This document shows positions 9,813-58,352 of a DNA stretch of 64,000 nt, one piece after another. The position numbers were made by a program, and so were the translations under genes. Origin of the DNA: a virus; IMG/VR virus record IMGVR_UViG_3300027749_000042; one strand, 5' to 3'. The notes below the pieces were generated by a model. It saw only the letters and a list, made by a program, of their open reading frames with translations, was not told the origin of the DNA and did no database searches. Every line of letters begins with the position of its first letter. Position 1 is the stretch's first letter.

Positions 9813-10867
9813 AGATTGCACTTATCACTGATACGCACTGGGGTGTGCGTAATGACAATTCCGCATTTCTCGACAACAACAAGAAATTCTTAGATGACAT
9901 TTTCTTTCCGTATCTCGATACTCATGGCATTGACACTGTTATCCATCTCGGTGATTTGGTTGACCGTCGTAAATATCTTAATATCAATACAGCTAAGCGA
10001 CTACGAGAAGATTTTATATCGCCTCTCCATAGAAGAGAAATCCGCCCCCACCTCATCATTGGAAACCACGATACCTATTTCAAAAATACGAACTCTGTAA
10101 ATTCAATCCGAGAAATCTACGGAAATGATTTCTGTATCTATGAGTCCGCTAGAGAGGTAAAAGTTGATGGCGTTCCAATTCTTTTCATTCCATGGATCTG
10201 CGATGATAACCGCGATGAAACGCTACAGCTTATCAGCACAACAAACGCTCAAATCTGCATGGGCCACCTCGAGCTTGCAGGTTTTGAAATGTATCGAGGT
10301 AGTCCAGTCAGCCATGGAGATGATCGTGGTTTGTTTGGTAGGTTCGACATGGTACTTAGCGGTCATTATCATCACAGGTCTTCTGCTGGGAACATTCACT
10401 ACCTTGGTAGCCATGCTGAGTTTACTTGGAGCGACTACGATGACCCCAAAGGATTCCATATCCTTGATACGGAAACTCGTGAACTGGCGTTTATAGAAAA
10501 CCCATTCAAGATGTTTCGTAAGATGTGGTATAACGATAAAGACGTTACCACCGAAGCTTTGCTTGACAGAGACTTTTCAAAATACGCGGGCGCGTATGTG
10601 AAGCTTATTGTTCAGGGTAAAGATAATCCGTTTGCGTTTGATTTGTTTACCACTAAGCTTTATGAAGCCAATCCAATTGAGGTGGTAATCGTTGAAGACC
10701 ATCGCAACATGGACACCATTGACGAGAATGACCTATTGAACGAGGCCGAAGATACCCTTACGATTTTGTCTAAGTATATTGGCACACTAGAAACAAGCGT
10801 TGACACAAAAGAGCTTGACAATCTAATGCATTCTCTATACAATGAAGCAATGAAAATGGAAGTTTGA
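9809..10867 (+). CDS. gp47: Recombination nuclease subunit gp47 (Mre11/SbcD-like)
   Basis: DTHWG, LGDLVD, GNHD, SGHYH metallophosphoesterase motifs. Confidence 0.96.
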   Translation: MKIALITDTHWGVRNDNSAFLDNNKKFLDDIFFPYLDTHGIDTVIHLGDLVDRRKYLNINTAKRLREDFISPLHRREIRPHLIIGNHDTYFKNTNSVNSIREIYGNDFCIYESAREVKVDGVPILFIPWICDDNRDETLQLISTTNAQICMGHLELAGFEMYRGSPVSHGDDRGLFGRFDMVLSGHYHHRSSAGNIHYLGSHAEFTWSDYDDPKGFHILDTETRELAFIENPFKMFRKMWYNDKDVTTEALLDRDFSKYAGAYVKLIVQGKDNPFAFDLFTTKLYEANPIEVVIVEDHRNMDTIDENDLLNEAEDTLTILSKYIGTLETSVDTKELDNLMHSLYNEAMKMEV

Positions 10868-10868
10868 T

Positions 10869-11051
10869 ATGGAATTTGAGCCAAGTGTAATTTACCTTGA
10901 TCGTAAAGGTAATGAATACCGATATATCTATAAGACTGGTGGCGTAACTGTCTTTGAGAATAACGAAGAGAAACGGTTCGCTCAACATTCTACTGGGCGA
11001 TACAGATGGGATAATCAAGACCATCCTCGTGATATTATTGGAAAGAAATGA
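10869..11051 (+). CDS. Hypothetical protein inserted between gp47 and gp46
   Basis: 60-aa ORF abutting both neighbours (ATGA overlap with gp46). Confidence 0.55.
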   Translation: MEFEPSVIYLDRKGNEYRYIYKTGGVTVFENNEEKRFAQHSTGRYRWDNQDHPRDIIGKK

Positions 11052-12757
11052 TACATTTTACATCCGTTCGTTGGAAGAACTTTCTATCAACTGGCAACGC
11101 CTTCACAGAGATTTCGCTAGATGCCAATTCATCAACGCTTATCGTTGGTGAGAATGGTGCTGGCAAATCTACTGTGTTGGATGCGTTGTGTTTTTCTTTG
11201 TATGGCAAACCATTCCGTAAGATCAAAAAGGATCAGCTAGTCAACTCGGTCAATGGCCGAGATGTTGTCGTTGAGGTAGAGTTTACAATTGGTGACAAGC
11301 ACTATCTAATTCGGCGTGGTATCAAGCCAGCTATCTTTGAAATCATCGAGAATGGCAAGCTCCTGGATCAGGAAGCTGCTTCGCGTGACTATCAAGAAAT
11401 GCTTGAGAAGAATATTCTCCGGCTTACCATGAAGTCCTTCACGCAGGTTGTCATTCTTGGTTCGTCATCGTTCGTACCATTCATGCAGCTATCAACTAAC
11501 AATCGCCGTGAGGTTATTGAAGACCTGTTGGACATCCGTGTATTCTCGTCAATGGCCTTGCTATTGAAGGATCGCGTCACGGGTGCGCGTGAGGACTACA
11601 ATCTAAACGAACGTGATATGACATCCACATCCGATTCCATTCTTGTGCAGGAAAAACTTCGCAAGCAACAAGAGGATCATAAGGGTGAAAAGATCCTCGA
11701 GCGCCGCGAGCGCATTGCTGAGCTGGAACAGGCTATTGATAGCGCGATGGCCAATGCACAGGAAGAACAAGAAACCATCGCTCAACTAACCGAGTCTACA
11801 GATGACCATGATTCTGTGATTGAGAGACAGCGAAAACTCCTTGCGTTAGAGAAAAGCCTGACATTAAAGAAAGCTAATGCAAAAAAATCAATCGCATTCT
11901 ACCACGATAATAATGAGTGCCCAACATGCACACAGGATATCGACCAAGCAATCAAGTGTGAGAAAATAGATGAGAAAGAAAAGACAATCGCAGAAATTGA
12001 AGATGCGCTCACTAAGCTATCTGGAGAAATTGCAACATGCGAAGCTCGTAGAGAAGCGATTGAGCGAGTACTTCGGCAAATCCATAAACATCAATCGAGC
12101 CTCAATAGCATCCAAGCCGATGTTCGCACAAGCCAAAAAGAAATCTCTATCTGGCAAAAAGAAATTGAAGGCCTCGAGAAAGAGACCGTCATTACCAGTC
12201 ACGACGAAATCATCAAAGACCTACAAGAGAAATATAGCAATCTCTTGGAACGCAAAAAGCATCTACTTGCACAGAGAGAAATGCACGATCTGGCAGGAAT
12301 AATTCTGCGCGACTCAGGTATCAAGTCTCGAATCATCAAGCAATATGTGCCCGTTATCAATACGCTTGTCAACAAGTACCTTGCTGCTATGGATTTCTTT
12401 GTCAAGTTCGAACTAAACGAGCAATTTGAAGAAAAGATTTTGTCACGCCATCGCGATGATTTCACATACGATTCATTTAGCGAAGGCGAAAAAATGCGTA
12501 TCGACCTTTCGCTATTGTTTACATGGCGTTCCATCGCTCGTATGAAGAATAGCGTCAACACCAATCTACTTATCCTCGATGAGGTTTTTGATGCCTCGCT
12601 TGATGCTAACGGCTGTGACGAGTTTCTAAAGCTTATACATAATGTGGAAGACACCAACATCTTCGTCATCTCTCATAAGGGCGATGTTCTACAAGATAAG
12701 TTCACAAGCACACTCCGATTCACAAAACAGAAAAACTTTAGTAGGATGATATCATGA
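11048..12757 (+). CDS. gp46: Recombination ATPase gp46 (Rad50/SbcC-like)
   Basis: GENGAGKST, CPTC zinc hook, FSEGEK signature, LILDEVFD. Confidence 0.97.
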   Translation: MIHFTSVRWKNFLSTGNAFTEISLDANSSTLIVGENGAGKSTVLDALCFSLYGKPFRKIKKDQLVNSVNGRDVVVEVEFTIGDKHYLIRRGIKPAIFEIIENGKLLDQEAASRDYQEMLEKNILRLTMKSFTQVVILGSSSFVPFMQLSTNNRREVIEDLLDIRVFSSMALLLKDRVTGAREDYNLNERDMTSTSDSILVQEKLRKQQEDHKGEKILERRERIAELEQAIDSAMANAQEEQETIAQLTESTDDHDSVIERQRKLLALEKSLTLKKANAKKSIAFYHDNNECPTCTQDIDQAIKCEKIDEKEKTIAEIEDALTKLSGEIATCEARREAIERVLRQIHKHQSSLNSIQADVRTSQKEISIWQKEIEGLEKETVITSHDEIIKDLQEKYSNLLERKKHLLAQREMHDLAGIILRDSGIKSRIIKQYVPVINTLVNKYLAAMDFFVKFELNEQFEEKILSRHRDDFTYDSFSEGEKMRIDLSLLFTWRSIARMKNSVNTNLLILDEVFDASLDANGCDEFLKLIHNVEDTNIFVISHKGDVLQDKFTSTLRFTKQKNFSRMIS

Positions 12758-13281
12758 TTATTCCGGGCAACGATCCACGTTTGAAGCAAGTGTGTAAGCC
12801 ATTCAATTTTGATGTTGGCTACACAATGGAAGATGGTAGCATCCTCTCAGCCGAGAAGCTTTTCTACATGCTGAAGGAACAGATGATTGCTAACAAAGGT
12901 GTAGGATTGTCCGCGTGTCAGATTGGCATTATGACTCGCGCATTTGTCATTGGTAACTTTACCGACCCCGATAGTGTGATTTCTGTTTTCAATCCACGCA
13001 TCGTAACAATGAATGATGATACTGTTGTGTATGAAGAGGGTTGCATTTCATATCCTGGTTTGTTTATGAAAGTGAAGCGCCCCAAAGAGTTTGAGGTTCG
13101 TTTCTCTGGTTGGGATGGCGTTGCTGGTACCACGATGTTCAAAGGCTATACGGCCAGGGTGTTTCTTCATGAGCTAGACCATCTCGATGGCATTACCTTT
13201 CAAAGCAAGGCTAGTCGTTTTCATTTGGAACAAGCTACCAATCAATTAAAGAAAATGAATAGAATAAAGAAACATGCATAG
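12754..13281 (+). CDS. def: Peptide deformylase
   Basis: GVGLSACQIG, EEGCIS, HELDHLDG motifs. Confidence 0.95.
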   Translation: MIIPGNDPRLKQVCKPFNFDVGYTMEDGSILSAEKLFYMLKEQMIANKGVGLSACQIGIMTRAFVIGNFTDPDSVISVFNPRIVTMNDDTVVYEEGCISYPGLFMKVKRPKEFEVRFSGWDGVAGTTMFKGYTARVFLHELDHLDGITFQSKASRFHLEQATNQLKKMNRIKKHA

Positions 13282-13288
13282 AAAACGC

Positions 13289-13317
13289 TTGACAAACTCT
13301 TCAAATCTGTTTATAAT
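13289..13317 (+). promoter_or_regulatory. Sigma70-type promoter of the MTase-cmoA pair
   Basis: Perfect TTGACA-17-TATAAT. Confidence 0.85.
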
Positions 13318-13331
13318 GCAAATAATAAAGA

Positions 13332-14627
13332 TTGGACAAAACATTGACAAAATATATTCCATACACAGTTGACGATATCAAAAAGTCTTCGGCCCGAGAG
13401 CTATTCACCGTCGTATCCACTTTTGCTGGTGGTGGTGGTTCATCAACTGGCTATCGCATCGCCGGTGGTAAAGTTATTGCCATGAATGAATTTGTAGAAG
13501 AAGCCATAAAGACATATTCAACAAATTTTCCAGATACCAAGATTATCCCAGGCGATATCAAAAAGCTTACTGGGCTTGATTTTCTTCGTGAAGCAAATCT
13601 CAAGCCTGGTGAACTTGATATCTTCGATGGGTCACCTCCTTGCTCCGCGTTCTCTGTTGCTGGTAAACGAGAGAAGCAATGGAAGGGTGCTGTAAAGAAA
13701 ACCGATAGCTCGTTTGAGATTGACGAATATGGTGAGCTAGAATTCGTCGAGGGTGAGACGTTTACGAAAACAGGCATCAAAACTTATAGTGATGGTATGG
13801 TTGTTGAAGCTATTGAAGATTTATTCCTAGAGTTCGTTCGCATCGCAAAAGATATCAAGCCTAAGGTTATCGTTGCAGAAAACGTCAAGGGTATCACAAT
13901 GGGCGAAGCGCGCAAGAAGCTTGTAGAGTTTCAGAACGCATTTGAAAACATTGAACCTGGTTATGTTGTCACGCATCACGTTTTGAGCGCCGCAAATTAT
14001 GGAGTTCCGCAAGCGCGTGAGAGACTGTTCTTTGTCTGTGTGCGTAGTGATGTTGCTAGTGTGATCGGTATGAACTGGATGAATGCCGAGACAATGACAA
14101 AGCCACCCGAAACAACTCCTATCATTCGTTCTGGTGGGCGTCGTCTAAGCGAGAATAGTCAACACATCTCATTGCGCGAAGCAATTGAAGATATCGAAAA
14201 TGATCCTGAAGAAATCCAGATGCTTAAGGATTATGTGATGGGTGGCTTTCAAAAAGATTGGATCACGAAGCTTCCATTTAATCCCAAGCGTCATACCAAG
14301 CCGAGCGATACTGAGTATCGGTCATGGAATCCTACAGGTTCATGTTTCAATATGATTCGCCCTTGCCCGGAACTTCCATGCCCTACTCTAACGCAGAGAG
14401 GGCAACAGCTTTCTGTGTCTGGTGTGTTTCATTACGCAGAGAATAGAAAGTTTACCATCAAAGAGTTGAAACGAATCATGAGTCTTCCAGAAGACTACAT
14501 ATTGTCTGGAAACTTTGATAAGCAAGCAGAACGAATCGGGCGCATGGTTGCTCCTAAAATGATGGGTGCCCTTGCGACTAACATCTATAATAAAATATTG
14601 AAACCCTATAAGGAAGCTACACAATGA
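13332..14627 (+). CDS. C5 cytosine DNA methyltransferase family (probable carboxymethyltransferase)
   Basis: Motifs I FAGGGG, IV GSPPCSAFS, VI ENVKG, VIII QARER; motif X reads IGRMVAP instead of IGN(A/S)V. Confidence 0.9.
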   Translation: MDKTLTKYIPYTVDDIKKSSARELFTVVSTFAGGGGSSTGYRIAGGKVIAMNEFVEEAIKTYSTNFPDTKIIPGDIKKLTGLDFLREANLKPGELDIFDGSPPCSAFSVAGKREKQWKGAVKKTDSSFEIDEYGELEFVEGETFTKTGIKTYSDGMVVEAIEDLFLEFVRIAKDIKPKVIVAENVKGITMGEARKKLVEFQNAFENIEPGYVVTHHVLSAANYGVPQARERLFFVCVRSDVASVIGMNWMNAETMTKPPETTPIIRSGGRRLSENSQHISLREAIEDIENDPEEIQMLKDYVMGGFQKDWITKLPFNPKRHTKPSDTEYRSWNPTGSCFNMIRPCPELPCPTLTQRGQQLSVSGVFHYAENRKFTIKELKRIMSLPEDYILSGNFDKQAERIGRMVAPKMMGALATNIYNKILKPYKEATQ

Positions 14628-15316
14628 CAGGTCAGTTCACGTTCGCGACACGCGAAGAAGGCTTTGATACGCACATCGACACATCCATTCGCGGCTACAG
14701 TGATCTGTGGCAAGACGTTGTGGATATCTCCCAGTACTTTGTTGAGAATGATACCAGCGTGGTCGATATTGGTTGCTCGACAGGTAAGATGTTAAAGAGT
14801 ATGATTAACCAGAACACGTTTGCACCTAACGCAATTTATACAGGTCTAGAGATTGAACCTGAGTTTTGGGGACCATACGATCAGGACGAAAAGGATTTCG
14901 ACAACCTCACATATCACAAGGGTGATGCTAATGGGTATTATTTCGACAACTGTTCATATGTCACGTCCATCTTCACACTTCAGTTCATGCCGTACCATGA
15001 TCGTATGCATCTAATCAGTCGCGTATTCAATGGATTGAACCCTGGTGGTGCTTTTGTCTTCGCGGAGAAGACGATGCCTGAGAATGTACGAATCCATGAA
15101 ATTCGCACCTTTACCTATTATGATTACAAGCGCCGCACGTTTACCACCGACGATATCATGGACAAGGAGCATCAGCTCCGTCATATGACCAAACCAAACA
15201 CCCGTGGCGAGCTAATCAAGGTCTGTCTAGACGCCGGCTTTCAAGCGGTTGACACCTTCTGGCAAAACCACGCCTTTACAGGGTTCATTGCGTTGAAGGG
15301 AACGACACAAAAGTAA
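14624..15316 (+). CDS. cmoA: CmoA-like carboxy-S-adenosylmethionine synthase
   Basis: FTF...FDTHIDTSIRGY, VDIGCSTG, FTLQF, GLNPGGAFVFAEK, F.GFIALK parallel E. coli CmoA blocks; ATGA overlap with MTase. Confidence 0.8.
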   Translation: MTGQFTFATREEGFDTHIDTSIRGYSDLWQDVVDISQYFVENDTSVVDIGCSTGKMLKSMINQNTFAPNAIYTGLEIEPEFWGPYDQDEKDFDNLTYHKGDANGYYFDNCSYVTSIFTLQFMPYHDRMHLISRVFNGLNPGGAFVFAEKTMPENVRIHEIRTFTYYDYKRRTFTTDDIMDKEHQLRHMTKPNTRGELIKVCLDAGFQAVDTFWQNHAFTGFIALKGTTQK

Positions 15317-15380
15317 CATAAAATGTTTCAAAAATAATTGAAAAAACACCAAAATACCTGAAAATAATTGGCAAACAATT

Positions 15381-15420
15381 TCAATGGCTTAGCGGAGATG
15401 ATCCCTAAGCCATTGTTTTT
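15381..15420 (+). terminator. Hairpin/terminator before early island
   Basis: CAATGGCTTAG...CTAAGCCATTG inverted repeat followed by a T-run. Confidence 0.6.
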
Positions 15421-15436
15421 GCTTGTTTTTCTAGCC

Positions 15437-15465
15437 TTGACAATGAGGTGGTTCTTTGCTATTAT
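15437..15465 (+). promoter_or_regulatory. Early promoter
   Basis: TTGACA-17-TATTAT with TG extension. Confidence 0.8.
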
Positions 15466-15502
15466 AAGAATATAAGATGAATTGAAAGACGAGAGACACA
15501 CC

Positions 15503-15709
15503 ATGAGCGTAGCAACAAACCCCAACCGCCGTCAAGCCCTTCGCGAAGCAACCCAAGATGCTATTGCTCAGTTCATGCAGAACGGCGGCAATGTGACCCG
15601 TTGCGAGACTTCTACTGCTAAGGTCAAGACGTTTCGCCACTTTGCTTCCATTGCCTCGCAAGGCCGCAAATTGACCACCCTCCGCAATGCCGGCTTTGCT
15701 TCTCGCTAA
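15503..15709 (+). CDS. Hypothetical early protein
   Basis: ORF downstream of early promoter. Confidence 0.6.
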   Translation: MSVATNPNRRQALREATQDAIAQFMQNGGNVTRCETSTAKVKTFRHFASIASQGRKLTTLRNAGFASR

Positions 15710-15724
15710 TTGAAAGGTTCAACC

Positions 15725-16057
15725 ATGTTTTCCATTCGCAAGCTCGACCTCTACCTTGCCGCTATCCGCGCTGATTATGCCGCTTTCAAAGCGCGCTCGC
15801 CTTATAGCAACGATCAAGTTCAGCAGGAAATGATTGCTGAATTCAACGCTGGTCTCCGCTATGAAATCGGTAGCCGCTATGTGAAGGTTATCGCAGGCAA
15901 TTCCGTTCACTCCTTCATTTGCATGACCGATATGGGTAAATTCTGCAAGGGCGATATCCTGAAGGCTGCAAGCTGGAAAGCTCCTGCAAAAAACAAGGCT
16001 CGCGGCAATGTAGTGCTCCGCGATTATCCCACCGTCCAATGGACCGGCGTCCACTAA
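15725..16057 (+). CDS. Conserved phage hypothetical protein
   Basis: VHSFI...GDILKAASWKAPAKNKARGN motif seen in many phage early proteins; SD GAAAGG. Confidence 0.7.
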   Translation: MFSIRKLDLYLAAIRADYAAFKARSPYSNDQVQQEMIAEFNAGLRYEIGSRYVKVIAGNSVHSFICMTDMGKFCKGDILKAASWKAPAKNKARGNVVLRDYPTVQWTGVH

Positions 16058-16070
16058 GAAAGGTTACACC

Positions 16071-16343
16071 ATGAGAAAAGTCCTTCGCAAAACTGTCCGC
16101 GCTTCCACTCTCACCGAGATTGCCAACCGTCTGTTAGCTTCGCCCTCGTCCACGCGGGATGAGCGGGTCGGTGTTATCGTTCTTTTGGAATCTTCACTCC
16201 TCACCGACGACGCCTACCGTGGCTATAACTACCTTGATGCCGAGCAGATTGGCTTTGAAGGTGTGCAGCCCGGCATTCGGCCCGAGCGTGGCGTTACCAA
16301 CCAGTTTGCCGACACCGACAACACCCGCCGTGTTTACCTCTGA
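16071..16343 (+). CDS. Hypothetical early protein
   Basis: SD GAAAGG, packed ORF. Confidence 0.6.
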   Translation: MRKVLRKTVRASTLTEIANRLLASPSSTRDERVGVIVLLESSLLTDDAYRGYNYLDAEQIGFEGVQPGIRPERGVTNQFADTDNTRRVYL

Positions 16344-16353
16344 GGAGAATCCT

Positions 16354-16536
16354 ATGACCACGTTAGATGAACGGATGAACCAAGGCATTGACCAGCTAAT
16401 TGCCAAGCTGGAAGAAATCAAAGCCATTCGTGGTGGCTATAGCCGTAAGGTCACGGCTGTGGATAAGGTGGCTGAGGAAGCCAAAAACTACGCCGACTTT
16501 TGGGATTACAAGCTTACCGATTGGGCTTCCGACTGA
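16354..16536 (+). CDS. Hypothetical early protein
   Basis: SD GAGGAG then ATG 16354. Confidence 0.6.
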   Translation: MTTLDERMNQGIDQLIAKLEEIKAIRGGYSRKVTAVDKVAEEAKNYADFWDYKLTDWASD

Positions 16537-16547
16537 GGAGAGATATC

Positions 16548-16862
16548 ATGGCTTTGGACACTGTAACCTTTGAACTGCCTACGCATTGGGCTTCCGCGCT
16601 TGTCAACTCCGACGAGAGCGGTCTGGATGAATTCGACTGCGAAGCCCTCGATGCTTTTACCGAGTGGATGCTCGAGGAGCATGGTCAATGCTGGTGCATT
16701 GGCGTAGAAGAGGATTCCTTTTTCTCGTGGCACCATGATGCCATTGATTTCAACGCATTGCCTGGCGACGTTTCGGTATTTACCTTTGACGTTTCGCCAG
16801 AAGCCAACGATGGTCAGCCATCCGAGATGCAGGAATGGCAGGACTTTGACCGAGATTGCTAG
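16548..16862 (+). CDS. Acidic hypothetical early protein
   Basis: SD GAGGAG; LPTHWASALVNSDESGL; very D/E-rich. Confidence 0.6.
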   Translation: MALDTVTFELPTHWASALVNSDESGLDEFDCEALDAFTEWMLEEHGQCWCIGVEEDSFFSWHHDAIDFNALPGDVSVFTFDVSPEANDGQPSEMQEWQDFDRDC

Positions 16863-16891
16863 TTGACAAACCGCGCGCCATGTGGTACTAT
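16863..16891 (+). promoter_or_regulatory. Early promoter
   Basis: TTGACA-17-TACTAT with TG extension. Confidence 0.8.
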
Positions 16892-16915
16892 ACATAATGA
16901 ATTGAGGAGAAGGTA

Positions 16916-19210
16916 ATGGCTGAGAAACTGGTATCGCCTGGCGCGCTTGACAAGTTGGCTAAATTGCTCGCGGCTGAGAACATTGCTGTGGAACATGCAC
17001 CCGTGGTCACTGCGTCTTTTGATGTTAAGAACCGCGTCCTGCGTCTGCCCATGTGGCAGGAAATGACTGAGAGCCTGTATCATCTGCTGGTGCTCCACGA
17101 GGTCGGGCACGCCCTTGAGACTCCGTGCGATGGCTGGAAAGGTGCTATTGACGCCGTTGAGGAATCAGACGGCCGCCGTGTGTCGCGCACATTTCAGGGC
17201 TATCTGAATGTGGTCGAGGACGCGCGGATCGAGCGCAAGATCAAGGCTAAGTTCCCCGGCTCGCGCCGTGATTTTCACGATGGCTACAAGTGGCTTTTCG
17301 AGTCGGACTTTTTCAATGTGAAGTCTACCAATCCCGATCAACTGTCAACCATTGACCGTATCAACCTGTATTTCAAGGTTGGTTCTCATATGCAGGTGCC
17401 GTTCTCGGATGAAGAACAGGTGTTTGTAAAGCGGGCTGAGGACATCCACACATGGGATGAGGCCGTCCAGCTTGCTAATGATCTCCTTGCTTTTGCCAAA
17501 GAAAAGGCGGAGCAGGAAGAGGAAGACCTGGATGAAGAAAAGCGTGACGTTTCTACCCGTACCCTTGATGATGACGGCGAGGAAGGTGACGATTGGGAAG
17601 ACGGTGAAGACGGCGATGAGGGGTTAAAAGGCGAGTCCGATCAGGATGAAGTCGGCGATGGTGATGATGAAGACAAACCGAAGCCCTCGCGCCGTGCGTC
17701 TGGTGGTCCCATCGAAGAGGCTACCACTGATAAGGCTCTGTCCGATAAGATGCAGGATCTGGTTGATCCTACTATGCTCGGCAGGGAGCTCCGTTATGTG
17801 GTGCTGCCGAAGGATATCGACTCCTCCAATTTCATTGTGAAGTATGGCGATATCCTCAAGTTCGCGCAGCACGATATCAACCTCGGCAAGGCAGCCAATT
17901 ATCAGGCTTTTGCCAATCGTGTGTTCTTCAAGTTCCGCAGCGACAATAACAATGCCATCAATTATATGGTCAAGGAGTTCGAAATGAAGAAGGCTGCTAC
18001 GGCCTATTCCCGTAGCAAGCAATCCAAGACTGGTACCATTGATACGACAAAGATTCATAGCTATAAGTTCAGCGAGGATATCTTCCGTCGTCTCACGGTA
18101 CTGCCAACTGGTAAGAACCACGGGCTTGTCGTCTATCTCGACCTGTCGGGTTCAATGTCTGGGCATATCCGTGGTGCGGTTGAACAGATGATTACCCTGG
18201 CTACTTTTTGTCGCCGTGCTAACATTCCACACCGTATCTATGGTTTCTCGACGAGCTTGTCTGGTGCAGGTTACAATCATCCTGCTACTCTGAAATACCA
18301 CGATATGCGGTCTAAAATCAATACGGAATGGCGTAACATTGACAATCGTGTTGACAAGCATTTCGTATACCCTAACACGGAACTGTCACTGCTGGAATTG
18401 TTTCACGAGGGCATGAACCTGCGTGATTTTAATTTCATGTGTTCCACATTGCTTATTTCAGGTATGATCCAGAACTATACCACATGCGATCTGGTTCCTG
18501 CTGGCTATAATAATGTGAAGCATTATGTCCGTGATGTTATCTTCAATAAATTCCGTGACCCGTTTGAGTTCCTTAGCCTTGGATCGACTCCGTTCAATGA
18601 TTCCTTGATGCTTGGTCGCGATATCATTACCAAGTTCACAAAGGAGAAGAACCTCGAGATTGTGAACATGGTGACGATTACCGATGGTGAGTCCGATCAT
18701 CCATCATATATTCTGCACAAGCAGAATGGTCAACGTGGTAATTTGGCTGGTTCTAGTATCATCCACAATAACCGCACCTCGTTCCTGACCGACGAGCATA
18801 GCAGGCGCCAAATTCGTTTGAATTTTGAGCATAACCATCAATATACCTCAATGTATGCTAAACTCATCCGTGACACGATGAAGGTCAATCTTGTTGGCTT
18901 CTACATTACCAACAGTGCCCGTGACGTTACCAGCGGCGCCCAGATGGCTGGGTCAAACTGGTATGATGCTGACCTGATGGCTAAGTCTTTCCGCTCTAAT
19001 CAGTATGCCATTGTGCCCGGCTTGTACGGCCACAATGAGTTCTACTATATCAAGGGCGGTAAAGACTTGCGTACCGAGAGTTCTGGCATGGGTGATATTG
19101 CTGCGGATTCATCCAAGGGTAAACTGAAAACCGCGTTTGCCAACGCACAATCCAAGCGCGGTACGTCCCGTGTTGTGTTGGCTAAGTTTATCGACAAGAT
19201 CGCCGTATAA
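16916..19210 (+). CDS. HEXXH metallopeptidase-like + VWA domain protein (CobT-like MoxR partner)
   Basis: LAKLLAAENI, HEVGHAL, NVVEDARIE, acidic linker, MIDAS DLSGSM and TITDGE. Confidence 0.85.
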   Translation: MAEKLVSPGALDKLAKLLAAENIAVEHAPVVTASFDVKNRVLRLPMWQEMTESLYHLLVLHEVGHALETPCDGWKGAIDAVEESDGRRVSRTFQGYLNVVEDARIERKIKAKFPGSRRDFHDGYKWLFESDFFNVKSTNPDQLSTIDRINLYFKVGSHMQVPFSDEEQVFVKRAEDIHTWDEAVQLANDLLAFAKEKAEQEEEDLDEEKRDVSTRTLDDDGEEGDDWEDGEDGDEGLKGESDQDEVGDGDDEDKPKPSRRASGGPIEEATTDKALSDKMQDLVDPTMLGRELRYVVLPKDIDSSNFIVKYGDILKFAQHDINLGKAANYQAFANRVFFKFRSDNNNAINYMVKEFEMKKAATAYSRSKQSKTGTIDTTKIHSYKFSEDIFRRLTVLPTGKNHGLVVYLDLSGSMSGHIRGAVEQMITLATFCRRANIPHRIYGFSTSLSGAGYNHPATLKYHDMRSKINTEWRNIDNRVDKHFVYPNTELSLLELFHEGMNLRDFNFMCSTLLISGMIQNYTTCDLVPAGYNNVKHYVRDVIFNKFRDPFEFLSLGSTPFNDSLMLGRDIITKFTKEKNLEIVNMVTITDGESDHPSYILHKQNGQRGNLAGSSIIHNNRTSFLTDEHSRRQIRLNFEHNHQYTSMYAKLIRDTMKVNLVGFYITNSARDVTSGAQMAGSNWYDADLMAKSFRSNQYAIVPGLYGHNEFYYIKGGKDLRTESSGMGDIAADSSKGKLKTAFANAQSKRGTSRVVLAKFIDKIAV

Positions 19211-19288
19211 ATACAAAGCAAAAATGAGGGGTTGACAAATCCCTCATTACCAACTACAATGGTAACATAATGACAAAAGGAGATGGCT

Positions 19289-19441
19289 ATGTTTAAAGTA
19301 TCATATACTCTCAAGGATGAAAACAAGCTTCTGTCGGACGAGACGGCCAAGTTTCGTTACCTACAGGATGCTTTCGATTTCATGCGTCGTTTGTTGGCTT
19401 CTACTGGACTTGTTGGTAAACCCACCATCGAGCGGCTTTGA
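19289..19441 (+). CDS. Small hypothetical protein (50 aa, not in ORF track)
   Basis: Promoter TTGACA-17-TACAAT at 19232-19260, SD AAGGAG, MFKVSYTLKDENK...KPTIERL. Confidence 0.6.
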   Translation: MFKVSYTLKDENKLLSDETAKFRYLQDAFDFMRRLLASTGLVGKPTIERL

Positions 19442-19505
19442 CCATTGACAATCCGACCTAATCCGTGCTATAATACTTATATGATGATGAAAAAAGGGCG
19501 ATGAA

Positions 19506-20708
19506 ATGAATACCAATCAGTCCAAGTTCCTTGAGCAGGCTACCAATCATTTTGGTGCTAATGCCGTCGTGGCTCGTTCTGAGCTTTGCGATTTTGCTTT
19601 GGCAAGCAATTTCAAGCGGGGTTCTTATCGTTGGATTTTTAAAGACGAGTATCGTGCTAGCCATGGCAAGTACAAGCTGCCTGCCGTCTCTGGCGCTGCT
19701 AGTGTTGATACTACGTCCATTGCCGCTATGGCAGCCGATATCGTTCCCATTCGCAAGGCTCAGCCAGTGGCTACCACTACCAAGTTCGATCCTAACGCCG
19801 TGTCGGAGCATGATTATGCTGCGGTGCCCGAGAAGGACAAGAACTATGTGCCTTTTGGCGAGTTCAAGATGATCGAAAAGATTATCGCCTCTGGCAAGTT
19901 CTTCCCTGTGTTCATTTCTGGGCATTCTGGCAACGGCAAGACTTTCATGGTTGAGCAGGCTTGCAGCAAAGCCAAACGAGCCATGATCCGTGTGCAGATG
20001 TCGCGTGAGACCGACGAGGACGATCTGATCGGTGGTTTCCGTCTTATCAATGGCGAGACCAAGTTCATGAAAGGCCCGGTACTCCGTGCGATGGAAATCG
20101 GTGCTTTGCTTCTGATTGACGAGGCCGACCGTGCTGATCCTGGCAAGGCTATGTGCCTCCAGGGTATCCTCGAGGGCAAGTCTTACTATGTGAAGAAGAC
20201 TGGTGAGATTGTAAAGCCAGCCGATGGCTTTAATATCATGGTCACTGCAAACACCAAGGGCCGTGGCTCTGAGGATGGGCGTTATGTTGCTGCGACCATG
20301 CTTGACGATGCTTGGCTTGAGCGTTTCCCGATCACGGTCGAGCAGGAATATCCTACTGTCCAGATCGAAAAGAAGATCCTCGTCAACTATCTTGGCAAAG
20401 ATTTGCCCGAGGCTGATGTTTCGTTCATCGACCATCTGACCGTCTGGTCTGAAATCATCCGCAAGACCTTTGCTGATGGTGCCATTGATGAACTCATTTC
20501 CACTCGCCGTCTGGTGCATATCGCACAGACGTTCCTGATGCTCGGTGACCGCATGAAGGCCATCAAGTTCTGCATTAACCGTTTCGATGAAGAGACCAAG
20601 ACCGCGTTCCTTGATCTCTATAGCAAGGTTGATCCTACGATCAATCCCATCCCCGCCACTCCTGCAGCCGATGCTGCTTCGGAGAAGTCTCAGGAAATTT
20701 CTTTCTGA
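19506..20708 (+). CDS. MoxR/CobS-like AAA+ ATPase
   Basis: GHSGNGKT Walker A, DLIGGFRL, LLIDEAD Walker B, TANTKG, ISTRRLV. Confidence 0.9.
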   Translation: MNTNQSKFLEQATNHFGANAVVARSELCDFALASNFKRGSYRWIFKDEYRASHGKYKLPAVSGAASVDTTSIAAMAADIVPIRKAQPVATTTKFDPNAVSEHDYAAVPEKDKNYVPFGEFKMIEKIIASGKFFPVFISGHSGNGKTFMVEQACSKAKRAMIRVQMSRETDEDDLIGGFRLINGETKFMKGPVLRAMEIGALLLIDEADRADPGKAMCLQGILEGKSYYVKKTGEIVKPADGFNIMVTANTKGRGSEDGRYVAATMLDDAWLERFPITVEQEYPTVQIEKKILVNYLGKDLPEADVSFIDHLTVWSEIIRKTFADGAIDELISTRRLVHIAQTFLMLGDRMKAIKFCINRFDEETKTAFLDLYSKVDPTINPIPATPAADAASEKSQEISF

Positions 20709-20746
20709 GATTAATATAAACCTAAACTTAAATTATGGAGAGATAT

Positions 20747-20953
20747 ATGTCCCAGTTGTCCTTGATTGAAAAGCACCTTCGTCGTAATAACACTGGCCCT
20801 GGTGTCACTGTCGATAAGCTTTCGAAGCTTACTGGCATTCCTAAGGAAGGTATCTATAAGCGTGTTAGCGACCTTCGCGAAGCGCACACAATCTACAGCA
20901 ACTACCGCAAGGTAAATGGCGAGCGCAAGCTTTACTACCGCATCGCTGCCTAA
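20747..20953 (+). CDS. Small HTH-like DNA-binding protein
   Basis: GVTVDKLSKLTGIPKEGIYKRVSDLR helix-turn-helix pattern. Confidence 0.6.
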   Translation: MSQLSLIEKHLRRNNTGPGVTVDKLSKLTGIPKEGIYKRVSDLREAHTIYSNYRKVNGERKLYYRIAA

Positions 20954-20965
20954 TTTGTGCTATAT

Positions 20966-20995
20966 AGGGTGGGGAGCATTCCTCACCCTATTTTT
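20966..20995 (+). terminator. Rho-independent terminator
   Basis: AGGGTGGGGA-GCAT-TCCTCACCCT followed by ATTTTT. Confidence 0.7.
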
Positions 20996-21009
20996 AATGG
21001 AGTCTAAAA

Positions 21010-49628: not shown

Positions 49629-49919
49629 ATGAAACAGTGGTTATATTATGGTTGGGTAACATTCAAACATTGGTTTCTCTTTACATCGTGGACAATTTTC
49701 CACAGTAAAGAGGACCGAGCAGAACTGGTAAAGCTGTACAATGAAAGGCTTTTTCAGAAGAAGCAGATGGCAATATATGTTGCATATTTTGGTCGATTGG
49801 CAAAATATGATGAAATCGAAGACTTTACCCGTCTAGATTTGTATATCGGTGATTTAAAAGCCGATAGGTTTGATCTCGTAGACGAGTACTACAAGACTAA
49901 GGAAAAGAAGGACGAATAA
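49629..49919 (+). CDS. Hypothetical protein
   Basis: Packed ORF. Confidence 0.5.
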   Translation: MKQWLYYGWVTFKHWFLFTSWTIFHSKEDRAELVKLYNERLFQKKQMAIYVAYFGRLAKYDEIEDFTRLDLYIGDLKADRFDLVDEYYKTKEKKDE

Positions 49920-50620
49920 TGATTTCATTCATCATACCATGCTATAACGAAGAAGAACATATCAAAGATTGCATACGTTCTATTCGTAAACATGTGTGGT
50001 ACGTGCCGTATGAAATCATTGTGGTTGATAACAATTGTACCGATAAGACCGCTGAAATCGCAGAACTAGAAGGTGCTTTTGTTATCAAAGAATCTCGCAA
50101 GGGTGTTGTGTTTGCGAGACAAGCTGGCTATGAAGCTGCTAAAGGTTTTCTGATTGCTAACATTGATGCTGATTCCAAGATAACAGATGGTTGGGTTTGG
50201 GAAGCATTGAGTTGCCTATCTAATGAAAATGTTGTCGCTGTAAGCGGTCCTCTTGAATATGATGGTGCTAGTTTTGGTTTAAAGGTAATGACGAAACTAT
50301 ATTATCTTCTTGGCAAAGTGAGCAACGATTATATTGGTGTGTTTCTTCAAGGTGGAAACGCTATGATTAAAAAATCTGCTCTAGATAAAGTTGGTGGATA
50401 TGATCTATCAATTGCTTTCTATGGCGAAGACACTATGACAGCAAAGCGCATTCATCATCTTGGTAAAATAGTATTTAATATGTACATGATTACCACGACT
50501 TCACCTAGAAGACTTGAAGAGCAAGGCGTCCTCAAGACGACCTGGCTTTATTTGACTAACTATTTTTCCGTGACATTCAAAAATAAATCCACAACGAATG
50601 ATTACAAGGATTATAGATGA
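49919..50620 (+). CDS. GT2 family glycosyltransferase
   Basis: ISFIIPCYNEE, IIVVDNNCTD, IDAD, GED, TSPRR. Confidence 0.92.
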   Translation: MISFIIPCYNEEEHIKDCIRSIRKHVWYVPYEIIVVDNNCTDKTAEIAELEGAFVIKESRKGVVFARQAGYEAAKGFLIANIDADSKITDGWVWEALSCLSNENVVAVSGPLEYDGASFGLKVMTKLYYLLGKVSNDYIGVFLQGGNAMIKKSALDKVGGYDLSIAFYGEDTMTAKRIHHLGKIVFNMYMITTTSPRRLEEQGVLKTTWLYLTNYFSVTFKNKSTTNDYKDYR

Positions 50621-51345
50621 AGTCATACCGAACAGTATTCATCTCAGATATTCATCTGGGCACGAAAATGAGTCAAGCAGACCAGCTGCTTGAGTTTATG
50701 AAAACATTTGAGTGTGAGAAGATATATCTTGTTGGTGATATTGTTGATTGTTGGGCCATGTCAAAGAAAAACATATGGTCTCAATTTCATAATGACGTAA
50801 TTCAAAAGCTTTTACGTCGCGCTAGAAAGGGCACAGAAGTTGTATATATCCCAGGAAACCATGACGATGTTATGCGTAACTATTGCGATAACGAATTCGG
50901 TCATATTATTATGGTTAGGGAAGCCATACATGTGGGAGTCGATAATCGGTTATATCTTGTTACTCACGGCGATCAGTTTGATGTGGTAATTAGAAATGCG
51001 GAATGGCTTGCACATCTTGGTTCATGGGCATATGATCTTAGTATCGACATGAGCCTTTTTATTAATAAAATCGGAACCGTGTTTGGTATGAAATACTGGT
51101 CATTGTCTGCCTATTTAAAAGGTAGAGTAAAAGAGTCGGTAAATTTTATTGGCAACTATGAAGAGACGCTATGTAATTATGTGAGAGGCAAAAATCTTGA
51201 CGGAATTATATGCGGGCATATTCATCATGCTAATATTCGTGATATTGGCGGTATTAGATATATGAATTGTGGCGATTGGGTAGAATCGTGTACCGCATTG
51301 GTTGAGAACCATGATGGTACATTTGAAATTGTGAAGTGGAAGTAG
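50617..51345 (+). CDS. Metallophosphoesterase, PlcP/LpxH-like
   Basis: FISDIHLG, LVGDIVDCW, HNDVIQKLLRRARKG, PGNHD, HGDQFD, CGHIH, NCGDWVESCTALVE. Confidence 0.88.
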   Translation: MKSYRTVFISDIHLGTKMSQADQLLEFMKTFECEKIYLVGDIVDCWAMSKKNIWSQFHNDVIQKLLRRARKGTEVVYIPGNHDDVMRNYCDNEFGHIIMVREAIHVGVDNRLYLVTHGDQFDVVIRNAEWLAHLGSWAYDLSIDMSLFINKIGTVFGMKYWSLSAYLKGRVKESVNFIGNYEETLCNYVRGKNLDGIICGHIHHANIRDIGGIRYMNCGDWVESCTALVENHDGTFEIVKWK

Positions 51346-51358
51346 ACTATATAAGTCT

Positions 51359-51820
51359 ATGACATATGAGAATGCGTGGACTTTTAATGGTAAGGAATTT
51401 GACAGTGAGAATATCGGGGATGCGTACGGCTTCGTTTACCTTATCACAACACCAGAGGGTCAGAAGTACATCGGTAGAAAGTACTTCTGGTCTATCAGAA
51501 AAGTTAAGGGTAAGACCCGTCGTCAGCGATCCGAATCTGACTGGAAAAAGTATTATGGCTCCAGTGATTTACTCAAAGCCAAAATCAAAGAATCAGACAG
51601 AAAACTCTTCCGAAGAGAAATTATCTCTTTACATTCGACCAAAGGTCGTGTAAACTATGAAGAAGTAAAAGAGCAATTCGTAAATGGCGTCCTGGAAAGT
51701 GACGACTATATCAATGACAATATCAATGGAAAGTGGCACCGTGGACCAGAACACATCACAAGCAAATCAAGATTCTCTTCCCTCTCATCTGGGCGGGCAT
51801 CTAAACAAAACCCACAATGA
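51359..51820 (+). CDS. GIY-YIG (Seg-like) nuclease
   Basis: YGFVYLIT...KYIGRK, ESDWKKYYGS. Confidence 0.8.
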   Translation: MTYENAWTFNGKEFDSENIGDAYGFVYLITTPEGQKYIGRKYFWSIRKVKGKTRRQRSESDWKKYYGSSDLLKAKIKESDRKLFRREIISLHSTKGRVNYEEVKEQFVNGVLESDDYINDNINGKWHRGPEHITSKSRFSSLSSGRASKQNPQ

Positions 51821-52319
51821 TCGTGGCACTCTCCTTCATTGTATCGAGAAGTTTCAAATCAAATCATTCCTCGATGTTGGCTGTGGCCCTGGCGGTATGG
51901 TTCGTCTCGCACAAATGCGTAATCTATTCTCATTAGGTATCGACGGCGATTGGGAAGTTCCTAAGGAAAAAGAAGCAAAGATTATCATCCACGATTTCAC
52001 AACTGGTCCTGCGCCATTAGACCGCGAGTTCGATCTTGGTTGGTCTGTCGAGTTTCTTGAGCATGTGGATGAACAATATCAGGATAACTATATGCAAGCT
52101 TTTGCTCGCTGTAAGTATGTTGCATGTACCGCTGCTGGTCCTGGTGCACCTGGGCATCATCATGTGAACTGCCAACTACCTACATATTGGCTTGATGTTT
52201 TTGATAAGTATGGTTTTGATTATGATGACGAGACCACACAGGAAATTCGTCTACACAAGTCTACCATGCAGAAGCCATTCATGCAGCGCACTGGTATGTT
52301 TTTCGCAAGGAGAGCATAA
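51726..52319 (+). CDS. Class I SAM-dependent methyltransferase (start uncertain)
   Basis: FLDVGCGPG, GIDG, WSVEFLEHV, HHVNCQ. Confidence 0.8.
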   Translation: MESGTVDQNTSQANQDSLPSHLGGHLNKTHNDRGTLLHCIEKFQIKSFLDVGCGPGGMVRLAQMRNLFSLGIDGDWEVPKEKEAKIIIHDFTTGPAPLDREFDLGWSVEFLEHVDEQYQDNYMQAFARCKYVACTAAGPGAPGHHHVNCQLPTYWLDVFDKYGFDYDDETTQEIRLHKSTMQKPFMQRTGMFFARRA

Positions 52320-52540
52320 TGATTTCGCAATATTGGAGCACTGATAAAAAGCTTTGTGCTGAAGTCCGTTTGTTTGAAGAACGCAGATTGGGTCCTGATA
52401 CGGCCGCGGCTGCTAACATGTACGCGGTAGATTTCAAGCGCGATGGTGTGCTTGTCGAGACAAGATACTTTCCTGGCAAGAGTGAAGCCTATGCTGATAG
52501 CGCAGCCTATAACTGGACGATTGGTATTCTAAATCTTTAG
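52319..52540 (+). CDS. Hypothetical protein
   Basis: SD AGGAG; resembles next ORF (A.NWTIGI). Confidence 0.6.
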   Translation: MISQYWSTDKKLCAEVRLFEERRLGPDTAAAANMYAVDFKRDGVLVETRYFPGKSEAYADSAAYNWTIGILNL

Positions 52541-52548
52541 GAGATAAC

Positions 52549-52755
52549 ATGCAAATTTTAACGACACATAGTTGCGATGATGACCACCGTTGCGCTGACG
52601 TTCTCAAATATGAAGATGGCACATTTACAGTTCGGTTTCGTTTATACGAGACTGTAGTTAAGACACAAGATTTTTCAACCGATCAGCAAGAAGCTGAAGC
52701 GGCGGCTAAAGATTGGTCTATAGGTATTATGGTGCGTCCTGATAATTCTATGTAA
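52549..52755 (+). CDS. Hypothetical protein
   Basis: SD AGGAG; A.DWSIGI. Confidence 0.6.
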   Translation: MQILTTHSCDDDHRCADVLKYEDGTFTVRFRLYETVVKTQDFSTDQQEAEAAAKDWSIGIMVRPDNSM

Positions 52756-52769
52756 TAAAGGATTTAATT

Positions 52770-53501
52770 ATGATTGAACCTATTCGTATTTTCGTAGGCA
52801 CATCTTCTAACAATGAAGATGCTGAGGCTGAAATGGTGTTGGAATATACACTAAAGAAGCACGCCACGCATCCTATCCAGATTACATGGATGCGGCAGAC
52901 GCATGACACCAATTCGCATTGGGGTGGATGGGAAACAGAAAATTGGTCTACCCCTTTCAGTGGTTTTCGTTGGGCAATTCCAGAGGCATGTGGTTATCAT
53001 GGGCGAGCAATTTACATGGATGTGGATCAGCTTAATTTGCGTGATATCGCTGATCTATACGCAACGGATCTTAACGGGCGTCCTATGGCTGCTAGGCGCG
53101 GCGCTCGTTTTGGTGGTCATGAGTTTTGCGTCATTGTTATGGATTGTGAGCAGTTTAATGGTATTCTTACACCTGTGGCGCGAATGAAGCCTAACCCTTC
53201 TGCACATCATAGATATATCAACATGTTCTCGGGCAATGCGGAATATGTAACCGATCTTGATCCACGATGGAATTGTCACGATGGTGACGGATTAGTGCTT
53301 GACAATATCTGGCACTTGCACTATACTAAAATGAGTACACAACCTTGGAAGCCTGCGTGGTTTACTGGCAAAGCTGAGGAACATCCACGGCAAGACCTTG
53401 TGAAGCTTTGGCATGATATGCGAGCCGAAGCAGTTCTTAATGGCTACGCGCCACAGCTTACCAATGAAACATATGGCGACTATAACATCATAGGAAGATA
53501 A
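52770..53501 (+). CDS. GT-A (GT8-like) glycosyltransferase
   Basis: IRIFVG, STPFSGFRWAIP, AIYMDVD, WN, LHYT..TQPW. Confidence 0.75.
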   Translation: MIEPIRIFVGTSSNNEDAEAEMVLEYTLKKHATHPIQITWMRQTHDTNSHWGGWETENWSTPFSGFRWAIPEACGYHGRAIYMDVDQLNLRDIADLYATDLNGRPMAARRGARFGGHEFCVIVMDCEQFNGILTPVARMKPNPSAHHRYINMFSGNAEYVTDLDPRWNCHDGDGLVLDNIWHLHYTKMSTQPWKPAWFTGKAEEHPRQDLVKLWHDMRAEAVLNGYAPQLTNETYGDYNIIGR

Positions 53502-53502
53502 T

Positions 53503-53733
53503 ATGGCTTTGCGTGAAGATATGGGAGGTGCAATGGAGATATTCAATCACATGTATTTCCTGAAGAAGGAGATTGCGTATCTTACGAGGTACGCTGAAGT
53601 CAATGGGCCTCATGATATGGGTCACATTCATACTACCATCAGCGTTCTTCAAGGCCGCTTTGATGAATGCAAAAAGTTCTCGGATGATTTTATGGCCAGT
53701 TCTCGGCATCTTCTTGATGGGATTACACTATGA
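53503..53733 (+). CDS. Hypothetical protein
   Basis: HDMGHIHTTISVL..R motif; packed ORF. Confidence 0.55.
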   Translation: MALREDMGGAMEIFNHMYFLKKEIAYLTRYAEVNGPHDMGHIHTTISVLQGRFDECKKFSDDFMASSRHLLDGITL

Positions 53734-54446
53734 AACTATTTGCTTCCTGTGATTCCAAGTACCTTCGCGTACACGCGCCCGCGCTCGTAGCGTCGGCTGC
53801 ATATCATAATAACTCTATCCATATCAATGTGATTGCTCCTGGGCAAGATGATCGTGACATCCTTGATGATATGAGTTCCAAGTATCACAAGATATCTGAA
53901 TGGCCGCATAGTGATTTTAGTTGGTCTATGAGTACCATGTATGCTTGCCCTAAAGATTCAGAAGAACTGCGTACGGTTTATGCTTGCGATAGGTTCCTTA
54001 CCGCAGGTCTCGTTATGCAGAACCACGAATGCGATTTGCTTATCATCGACACCGACTGTTTGGTTATGCAACACATTGAACCAATTCTTGATGATCAGGT
54101 TGGATTGTTTCTTCGTGAGTCATTGCCCGGCACACAGGGTTGGGAAAATGCTGGTAGTCGTGTAGCAGCTGGTGCTGTGTTTATTTCACAAGAGGCTGTA
54201 CCATTCCTTGAGAAGGTTGAAAATCGTATCAGGAAAGGGCCTCTCGCGTGGTTCTTAGATCAGGTAGCTATCAATGAAGCTTATCAGGAAGATATTACTG
54301 ACTATCGTTTTAGGTATTTCGACGCGCAATTTATGGACTGGGAGTTCGTGGAAGGAACTACGATCTGGACTGGTAAAGGACCGCGGAAGTATGAGAACGA
54401 AAAGTACCTTGCCAAGAAAGCTTTCTTCGAAAGGATGATGCGGTGA
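53730..54446 (+). CDS. Nucleotide-diphospho-sugar transferase-like protein
   Basis: YACDRF, IIDTD (DxD), AAGAV, WFLDQ, WTGKG. Confidence 0.65.
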   Translation: MKLFASCDSKYLRVHAPALVASAAYHNNSIHINVIAPGQDDRDILDDMSSKYHKISEWPHSDFSWSMSTMYACPKDSEELRTVYACDRFLTAGLVMQNHECDLLIIDTDCLVMQHIEPILDDQVGLFLRESLPGTQGWENAGSRVAAGAVFISQEAVPFLEKVENRIRKGPLAWFLDQVAINEAYQEDITDYRFRYFDAQFMDWEFVEGTTIWTGKGPRKYENEKYLAKKAFFERMMR

Positions 54447-54649
54447 GATACTTCTGTTACCTGATAACAGGCGGTGAACGAGGCGAAACCTATGAAGTCG
54501 AAACAGTATCAGAGGAACAAATTCTTGATTGGGATTGGCGCGATTGGGTGCGCGAAGAACGTAAAAAAACAAACCCAAAAGAACTAACAAAAGAAAACTG
54601 TATCAATGATTGGGTTATTTTGAATAACGCATGGGAGAGTACGCCTTGA
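54443..54649 (+). CDS. Hypothetical protein
   Basis: SEEQIL..W...CINDWVILNNAW. Confidence 0.55.
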   Translation: MRYFCYLITGGERGETYEVETVSEEQILDWDWRDWVREERKKTNPKELTKENCINDWVILNNAWESTP

Positions 54650-57903: not shown

Positions 57904-58352
57904 ACAAATTTTATGAGACGCACACGCGCACGATAGCGAAGACGCTGACGATCAGAGTTCTATTCACTCTAAGCCATCTCTTGAATGGATTCATCGTTAC
58001 CGGTAGTTTCGTTATTGGAGCGCAGATTGCAGGCGTAGCAGCCATCATCAATATGGTTTTATTTTGGATTCACGACCGTGCGTGGGAATTTGCGGCATTC
58101 AATAGAAAACCAGGTGACACCAAGTTATTTGTTGACGGGCACCCAAGAACTATTAGCAAGAGCATAACGTGGCGGGCACTAATCACAATCAATAATTTTA
58201 TGATTCCATTCATAATGACTGGCTCTTGGCAATCGGCTATAGCGTTCCTAGGAATAGCTACCGTACTAAATATTATCGTATATTATGCTCATGAACGAGT
58301 TTGGAATGGTGTTGTTTGGGGAAAGAGAGAAAAAGATGTCGTTCAGCAATAA
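57900..58352 (+). CDS. Tandem DUF2061-like membrane protein
   Basis: Two repeats: RTIAKT...HDRAW and RTISKSITWR...HERVWN. Confidence 0.75.
   Translation: MNKFYETHTRTIAKTLTIRVLFTLSHLLNGFIVTGSFVIGAQIAGVAAIINMVLFWIHDRAWEFAAFNRKPGDTKLFVDGHPRTISKSITWRALITINNFMIPFIMTGSWQSAIAFLGIATVLNIIVYYAHERVWNGVVWGKREKDVVQQ

Follow-up and report, generated by a model that had tools for sequence, protein, structure and literature searches.

The closest described system is the CmoA-CmoX-CmoY pathway of Synechococcus phage S-B43 (Yang et al., Nat Commun, 7 December 2025; PMC12783734). In S-B43, CmoA (SpCmoA) makes carboxy-S-adenosylmethionine (Cx-SAM) from S-adenosylmethionine (SAM) and prephenate, with a kcat of 2.3 per s, and is about 10 times faster than the E. 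coli enzyme. CmoX (SpCmoX) is a homologue of cytosine C5-methyltransferases with Arg350, a residue in contact with the carboxyl group of Cx-SAM (PDB 8YF3), in place of the motif X Asn; it writes 5-carboxymethylcytosine (5cxmC) at GC sites, shields DNA from HhaI and, as the wild-type enzyme, uses Cx-SAM only and not SAM. CmoY, an asparagine synthetase homologue, ligates glycine to the base to give 5gcxmC, the sole form detected in S-B43 virion DNA. The same study retrieved 5,615 candidate CmoX proteins (SPPC plus R350) from viral databases, counted 4,257 CmoA, 2,251 ligase and 1,660 ParBc sequences on the contigs that carry them, and stated that the sequence specificities of these candidates were still to be determined (PMC12783734). 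Here, we describe a cmoX-cmoA cassette of this kind in a 64,000-nucleotide stretch of viral DNA (IMG/VR record IMGVR_UViG_3300027749_000042; the whole stretch is referred to below as the window), which very probably makes Cx-SAM and writes 5cxmC as an anti-restriction mark.

The cassette is a further example of a published kind of system and not a discovery. It was first noticed in a prediction made from the letters of the window, which also mentioned a similar pair from a cyanophage; this was correct, and the pair is that of S-B43 (PMC12783734). Both enzyme families are common to the two loci, as are the SPPC motif, the residues that bind the cofactor and the Arg of motif X, and in each case a T4-like myovirus carries the genes side by side in one transcription unit. 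The gene order is cmoA-cmoY-cmoX in S-B43 and cmoX-cmoA, with an ATGA overlap, in the window. S-B43 possesses CmoY, whereas none was found here, so that no glycine amide is predicted, and S-B43 CmoX lacks a 29-residue insertion and three recognition-region segments that are present in the CmoX described here. S-B43 is a cyanophage, whereas the phage here is no typical cyanomyovirus (the best database matches of its gp43, at about 50% identity, are cyanomyoviruses). A second precedent, as cited in the S-B43 study (PMC12783734), is the engineered M.MpeI N374K, which produces 5cxmC at CpG and likewise combines a basic residue in place of the motif X Asn with Cx-SAM as the donor; that enzyme is an engineered Lys variant, whereas the one here is a natural Arg enzyme, related to M.MpeI through the shared family only and accompanied by its own Cx-SAM synthase. 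When the cassette DNA was compared to 50,697 phage records, only a 260-bp region encoding N-terminal motifs was matched, at about 70% identity.

The cmoX-cmoA operon and its products

A consensus search of positions 12500-16200 gave a single perfect promoter site, at 13289-13317 (Table 1), and the perfect sigma70 promoter claimed in the original prediction was thereby recovered with a match at 12 of 12 positions. This site is predicted to be the early promoter of the cassette, of the type used by host RNA polymerase. The claimed ATGA overlap was likewise read at 14624-14627, where the cmoX stop codon (TGA, 14625-14627) overlaps the cmoA start codon (ATG, 14624-14626), and the two genes would be translationally coupled through it. 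Both genes have a common promoter upstream and a common terminator at their end. The terminator hairpin was predicted to fold with -21.9 kcal/mol (z, -4.67), none of 200 shuffled sequences folded equally well, and the next promoter begins at 15437. Promoter, cmoX, cmoA and terminator, as read from the sequence, constitute a self-contained early operon of an uncultured T4-like myovirus.

Table 1. Positions of the cassette, its parts and the conserved neighbors of the distal PP-loop gene in the window
Feature	Position	Strand	Basis or detail
Swappable cassette (promoter, cmoX, cmoA)	13233..15325	+	blastn versus sister phage G018
Sigma-70-type promoter	13289..13317	+	TTGACA 13289-13294, 17-nt spacer, TATAAT 13312-13317; 12/12 consensus
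cmoX	13344..14627	+	427 amino acids from TTG 13344; PF00145, 8YF3 match, AlphaFold2 model
Catalytic Cys104 codon, SPPC motif (= SpCmoX C98)	13641..13643	+	Read from sequence
CmoX insertion, about 29 residues	13683..13769	+	Directly after catalytic loop; absent from SpCmoX (alignment)
Arg404 codon CGC, motif X GRMVAP (= SpCmoX R350)	14541..14543	+	Sequence and 8YF3 alignment
cmoA	14624..15316	+	230 amino acids; TIGR00740 best family, SpCmoA homology, 4GEK
Intrinsic terminator	15382..15430	+	Interrupted 14-bp hairpin, then UUGUUUUUGCUUGUUUUU
DUF2061 and twitch radical-SAM genes conserved with open reading frame 56770-57903	57900-58352 and 58285-59712

The cmoX open reading frame (ORF) is open from TTG 13332 (13332-14627, 431 amino acids) and has no ATG start. 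Because the initial Met of homologues from two related loci (L006 and L022) falls at the second TTG, the start is probably at 13344 and the protein probably has 427 rather than 431 residues; residue numbers given here follow the 431-residue frame unless marked otherwise. The ORF matched PF00145 with an E value of 5e-51 and TIGR00675 (dcm) with 137 bits. The AlphaFold2 model, for which 37 homologues were used (predicted local distance difference test [pLDDT] score, 87; predicted template modeling score, 0.85), had 8YF3 as its top PDB match, with a template modeling score of 0.93 and an E value of 3e-39, the next matches lying at about 1e-19; together with the PF00145 match, this indicated that the C5-cytosine methyltransferase fold is present in CmoX. 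By sequence, the protein matched SpCmoX (8YF3, with Cx-SAM) at an E value of 1e-102, M.HaeIII being the best of the ordinary methyltransferases at 1.6e-20, and the identity to SpCmoX was 46% over the full length.

The C5-methyltransferase motifs that had been claimed as intact were all found (I, FAGGGG; IV, SPPC; VI, ENV; VIII, QARER), and ENV and QxRxR are also conserved between CmoX and SpCmoX. The SPPC motif corresponds to S101-P102-P103-C104, a column that was invariant in both the CmoX alignment and the 37-homologue alignment, and the SpCmoX residues that contact the adenine and ribose of Cx-SAM (F25, E47, F48 and D69) correspond to F31, E53, F54 and D75, which were invariant in the CmoX alignment. 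Motif X reads ERIGRMVAP in CmoX and ERVGRMVPP in 8YF3, and R404 was aligned to R350 both by phmmer and in the CmoX alignment. By this correspondence, Arg404 stands where ordinary C5-methyltransferases have the motif X Asn, and the Asn-to-Arg replacement proposed in the original prediction was found as CGC at exactly the predicted codon. Arg404 was invariant across the 37 homologues, and a motif X Arg was present in 78 of 80 related IMG/VR loci, the motif being unreadable in the remaining 2. The insertion that follows the catalytic loop is common to the L006 and L008 clades and was modeled, at low confidence, as a long beta-hairpin whose strands span residues 116-126 and 132-142 (427-residue numbering; pLDDT, 47-68).

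For the second gene product, TIGR00740 was the best NCBIfam family (E value, 8.5e-26), ahead by 20 orders of magnitude, which bears out the earlier description of a CmoA-like protein, though with a score under the curated cutoff. CmoA was 48% identical to the assayed SpCmoA over 231 residues, at full length (E value, 1.5e-68), and 54% identical to the homologue from S-CRM01, and in the alignment it shared the clade-specific substitutions of SpCmoA. It also matched E. coli CmoA's structure (4GEK) at full length, with 27% identity and an E value of 1e-19. Like bacterial CmoA (E. coli b1870; PDB 4GEK, 4IWN and 1IM8), it has the class I fold, the SAM-binding DxGCSxG motif and equivalents of Tyr39, Asp117 and Phe137; it differs in falling under the NCBIfam equivalog cutoff and in a Glu at the Arg199 column, and whereas bacterial CmoA partners CmoB, the CmoA described here partners a DNA transferase.

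In the proposed pathway, CmoA would convert SAM and prephenate to Cx-SAM, Cys104 of CmoX would attack C6 of cytosine, and CmoX, with Arg404 in place of the motif X Asn, would pass the carboxymethyl group from Cx-SAM on to C5 to give 5cxmC in phage DNA, a mark that would block restriction enzymes. The anatomy of the genes, their homology and synteny and the conservation of residues were computed in this study, whereas the chemistry, the contact between Arg and the carboxyl group and the protection from HhaI come from the S-B43 orthologues, and we infer that the proteins act in the same way here. The original proposal that a Cx-SAM synthase together with an Arg-type C5 transferase yields 5cxmC agrees with the S-B43 system, both proteins being full-length homologues of its enzymes. 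No thymidylate-synthase-family hydroxymethylase was found in the phage, so that the C5 position of cytosine should be free.

Several observations weigh against this proposal. CmoA reached 91.1 bits against TIGR00740, for which the cutoff is 193, and 72.5 bits against NF011995, for which it is 285. At the column of E. coli Arg199, a carboxyl-binding residue that forms a salt bridge to the Cx-SAM carboxyl (PMC3663124), CmoA has a Glu. The 29-residue insertion of CmoX adjoins the catalytic loop and was modeled at low confidence, and the recognition region has extra segments relative to SpCmoX. The absence of a ligase rests, beyond the window, on a sister strain estimated to be about 97% complete, and the genome encodes an orphan ligase of the asparagine synthetase fold (56770-57903). 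With regard to Arg199, every phage CmoA aligned had Glu at this column; because the active SpCmoA has the same Glu, this would be a trait of the phage CmoAs rather than a ground for doubting the CmoA described here. The aligned phage CmoAs also share a KExxLR motif, the LR pair of which lies four residues (one helical turn) past the Arg199 column.

Search for a CmoY-type ligase

Two IMG/VR records from one metagenome (G001, 58 kb; G017, 107 kb) represent a sister strain that tiles the window at 95 to 98% nucleotide identity; they are estimated to be 32% and 65% complete, respectively, and about 97% complete together. When SpCmoY was compared to the window by tblastn, only a 28-residue PP-loop match was obtained (56995-57078), and no CmoY homologue was found. 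A search with PF00733 detected none in the two sister records or in another CmoY-less record (G010), and CmoY was found in the control record (G006). The sister records also contained no CmoB (PF08003). Since these searches gave no ligase of the CmoY type, the final mark may be unligated 5cxmC, and the earlier suggestion that the base could be a handle for hypermodification is unsupported for this phage.

The alternative that survives best, although we consider it improbable, is that 5cxmC is only an intermediate, which a distant ligase, most plausibly the product of ORF 56770-57903, amidates to give a hypermodified base as in S-B43. In favor of this possibility, the SGGSDS PP-loop of the ORF is intact, its modeled fold resembles that of asparagine synthetase, and CmoY is also an asparagine synthetase homologue (PMC12783734). 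The AlphaFold2 model (pLDDT, 92) was closest to asparagine synthetase B, in its synthetase domain (Z, 11.5 across 284 residues), human ASNS and beta-lactam synthetase reached Z scores of 11.2 and 9.9, and generic PP-loop enzymes reached at most 7.7. However, the similarity to SpCmoY is limited to the PP-loop, and 41 kb separate the ORF, which belongs to an island of glycosyltransferase, capsule-synthesis-like and radical-SAM genes, from the cassette. Moreover, orthologues with 64 to 66% identity occur in two other phages, G018 and G019, whose genomes are estimated to be 93% and 100% complete and are without CmoX, PF00145 and CmoA-like genes, and one genome with a CmoY of its own contains distant paralogues as well. 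The candidacy of the ORF as a dedicated 5cxmC ligase was rejected on account of these orthologues in near-complete genomes.

The ORF had no match in Pfam, PHROG, NCBIfam, PDB sequences or the phage database, and its approximately 315 metagenomic homologues are all unnamed. It is without a glutaminase domain, and across phages, G018 and G019 among these, its conserved companions are a membrane protein with DUF2061 and a radical SAM protein with a twitch domain (NF033640, 282 bits).

Exchange of the cassette and target specificity

The cassette was compared by blastn with the corresponding region of G018, a sister phage with a gp46 that is 96% identical. The flanks (10409-13232 and 15326-21000) aligned at 84 to 92% nucleotide identity, and the segment between them (13233-15325), which includes the promoter, was without counterpart. 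In the same slot, G018 carries 2.3 kb of different DNA (locus L125, 6875-9177) with a TTGACA-type promoter and genes for a 470-residue TET-associated glycosyltransferase (TAGT) and a 292-residue class I methyltransferase-like protein, and the terminator at 15382-15430 is kept 3' of this cassette as well. The TAGT protein matched PF20691 (E value, 2e-43) and PHROG 842, labeled 'beta-glucosyl-HMC-alpha-glucosyltransferase'. The 292-residue protein was considered as a cryptic CmoA and rejected, only a GxGxG motif being in common. No PF00145 or PF00303 gene that could account for the substrate of the TAGT protein was present in G018. The two cassettes are alike in occupying exactly the same slot, in having their own promoters and in sharing the terminator; they differ in that the enzymes are unrelated, the TAGT type glycosylating hydroxymethylated pyrimidines, compared to carboxymethylation here. 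The common slot suggests that the two have an equivalent role as exchangeable DNA-modification cassettes.

In G019, a more distant phage with a complete genome and terminal repeats, genes for a DUF1599 protein, a thymidylate-synthase-family protein and a dCMP deaminase lie 3' of the peptide deformylase gene (PDF). This suggests that the region after gp46 and PDF is a general neighborhood for nucleotide and DNA modification. The same part of G019 (L126, 3300-6800), which follows gp46 and PDF, also encodes a DenV-like glycosylase and a MazG-like protein; DUF1599 is the 'nucleotide modification associated domain 1', and the thymidylate-synthase-family match, a candidate pyrimidine hydroxymethylase, is weak (45 bits).

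The exchange in G018 also bears on a different reading, in which CmoX is an ordinary SAM-dependent 5-methylcytosine methyltransferase and CmoA serves the cmo5U modification of tRNA, for example of phage tRNAs via host CmoB. CmoA was originally a tRNA-modification enzyme, the window has at least seven tRNA genes, with Pro(UGG) among these, and PHROG 4752, the family of CmoA, is labeled 'tRNA methyltransferase'. However, the whole cassette is swapped for a DNA-glycosyltransferase cassette in the sister phage, an exchange that favors a function in DNA modification; CmoX retains the conserved motif X Arg, and SpCmoX in its wild-type form takes Cx-SAM only (PMC12783734); cmoX and cmoA are coupled, as predicted from their overlap; and the sister strain has no CmoB. 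We therefore regard a tRNA role as highly unlikely, and synthesis of 5cxmC by the operon remains the preferred reading.

The 80 related IMG/VR loci were collected in a survey seeded with CmoX. The order gp46, PDF, CmoX, (CmoY), CmoA and 764-residue peptidase was conserved across many T4-like contigs, and CmoY was gained or lost among CmoX proteins of similar divergence. Gene content was counted at the 35 loci where CmoX is flanked by 3 kb or more on either side: both CmoA and CmoY were near CmoX at 18 of these, CmoA without CmoY at 6 (the clade of the window included) and CmoY without CmoA at 2, and CmoX was alone at 9. Neither cmoA nor cmoY lay within 6 kb of the Arg-type CmoX at L096, L097, L101, L104, L105, L108-L113, L117 and L119-L122, and the phages of these lone-CmoX loci may use host CmoA for Cx-SAM or encode CmoA elsewhere. 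The idea that CmoA benefits the phage mainly by depleting host SAM, as a counter-defense against SAM-dependent systems with DNA carboxymethylation secondary, was raised as a possibility in the discussion of Yang et al. and would fit the approximately 10-fold higher speed of phage CmoA over the E. coli enzyme (PMC12783734), but it has little chance of being the main explanation, is compatible with 5cxmC synthesis by the operon and contends with a CmoA that was mostly beside CmoX in the 80 loci, a survey that by its CmoX seed is blind to lone CmoA.

Relative to SpCmoX, the recognition region of CmoX contains three insertions, of 13, 5 (SDTEY) and 6 (QQLSVS) residues. Because the recognition region belongs to another subtype, the target motif may differ from the GC of S-B43. 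At L018-L021, L023 and L090-L095, a single cmoA is preceded by tandem genes for two CmoX proteins, one belonging to this subtype and the other to that of SpCmoX. The occurrence of the subtypes in tandem argues for non-redundant specificities, and judging from these arrangements, two tandem cmoX paralogues probably represent two target specificities served by a single supply of Cx-SAM. Tandem cmoX paralogues with differing recognition subtypes and one cmoA, with or without cmoY, were also seen at L067-L077, in addition to L090-L095, L018-L021 and L023. Taken jointly, the combination of terminal, unligated 5cxmC, a non-GC motif recognized by an uncharacterized CmoX subtype and interchangeable cassettes at a fixed hotspot between PDF and the terminator is put forward tentatively, with slightly more doubt than confidence.

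Phage context and implications

The window belongs to a T4-like myovirus, as indicated by genes for the gp21 protease, gp22 scaffold, gp23, UvsY, UvsW, gp47 and gp46. At the cassette, the gene order is peptide deformylase, cassette, 764-residue peptidase-like protein and AAA_5 ATPase. Also encoded are gp45, gp44, Hsp20, gp43, UvsX, gp41, a class II ribonucleotide reductase, glycosyltransferases and the tRNAs. A tRNA-SeC called by ARAGORN at 63125-63202 (anticodon TCA) is doubtful, since its loop, CUUUCAA, reads UUC (Glu) in the standard register. The best matches of gp23 (63 to 67% identity) were to cyanophages and to Pelagibacter, Methylophilales and Stenotrophomonas phages, and no host group could be named from gp43 and gp23. 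An outer-membrane beta-barrel protein (56225-56770; PF13505, E value 4e-9) is encoded beside genes of the glycosyltransferase and capsule-synthesis-like kinds (49919-55614), and a phage-encoded beta-barrel protein, identified from its sequence, implies a putative Gram-negative (diderm) host.

Since the class has been published, with thousands of candidates counted by its authors, the cassette adds little in principle. The terminal 5cxmC, the possible new target motif and the residence in a swap hotspot are predictions. The lineage without CmoY would nevertheless be a natural test of bare 5cxmC as a terminal mark, S-B43 virions having given the glycine amide only, and the CmoX subtype could give a further sequence specificity for DNA labeling and sequencing chemistry based on carboxymethylation. 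Moreover, the glycosyltransferase cassette in the slot of the sister phage offers a clean case of modular exchange of DNA modification between near-identical phages.

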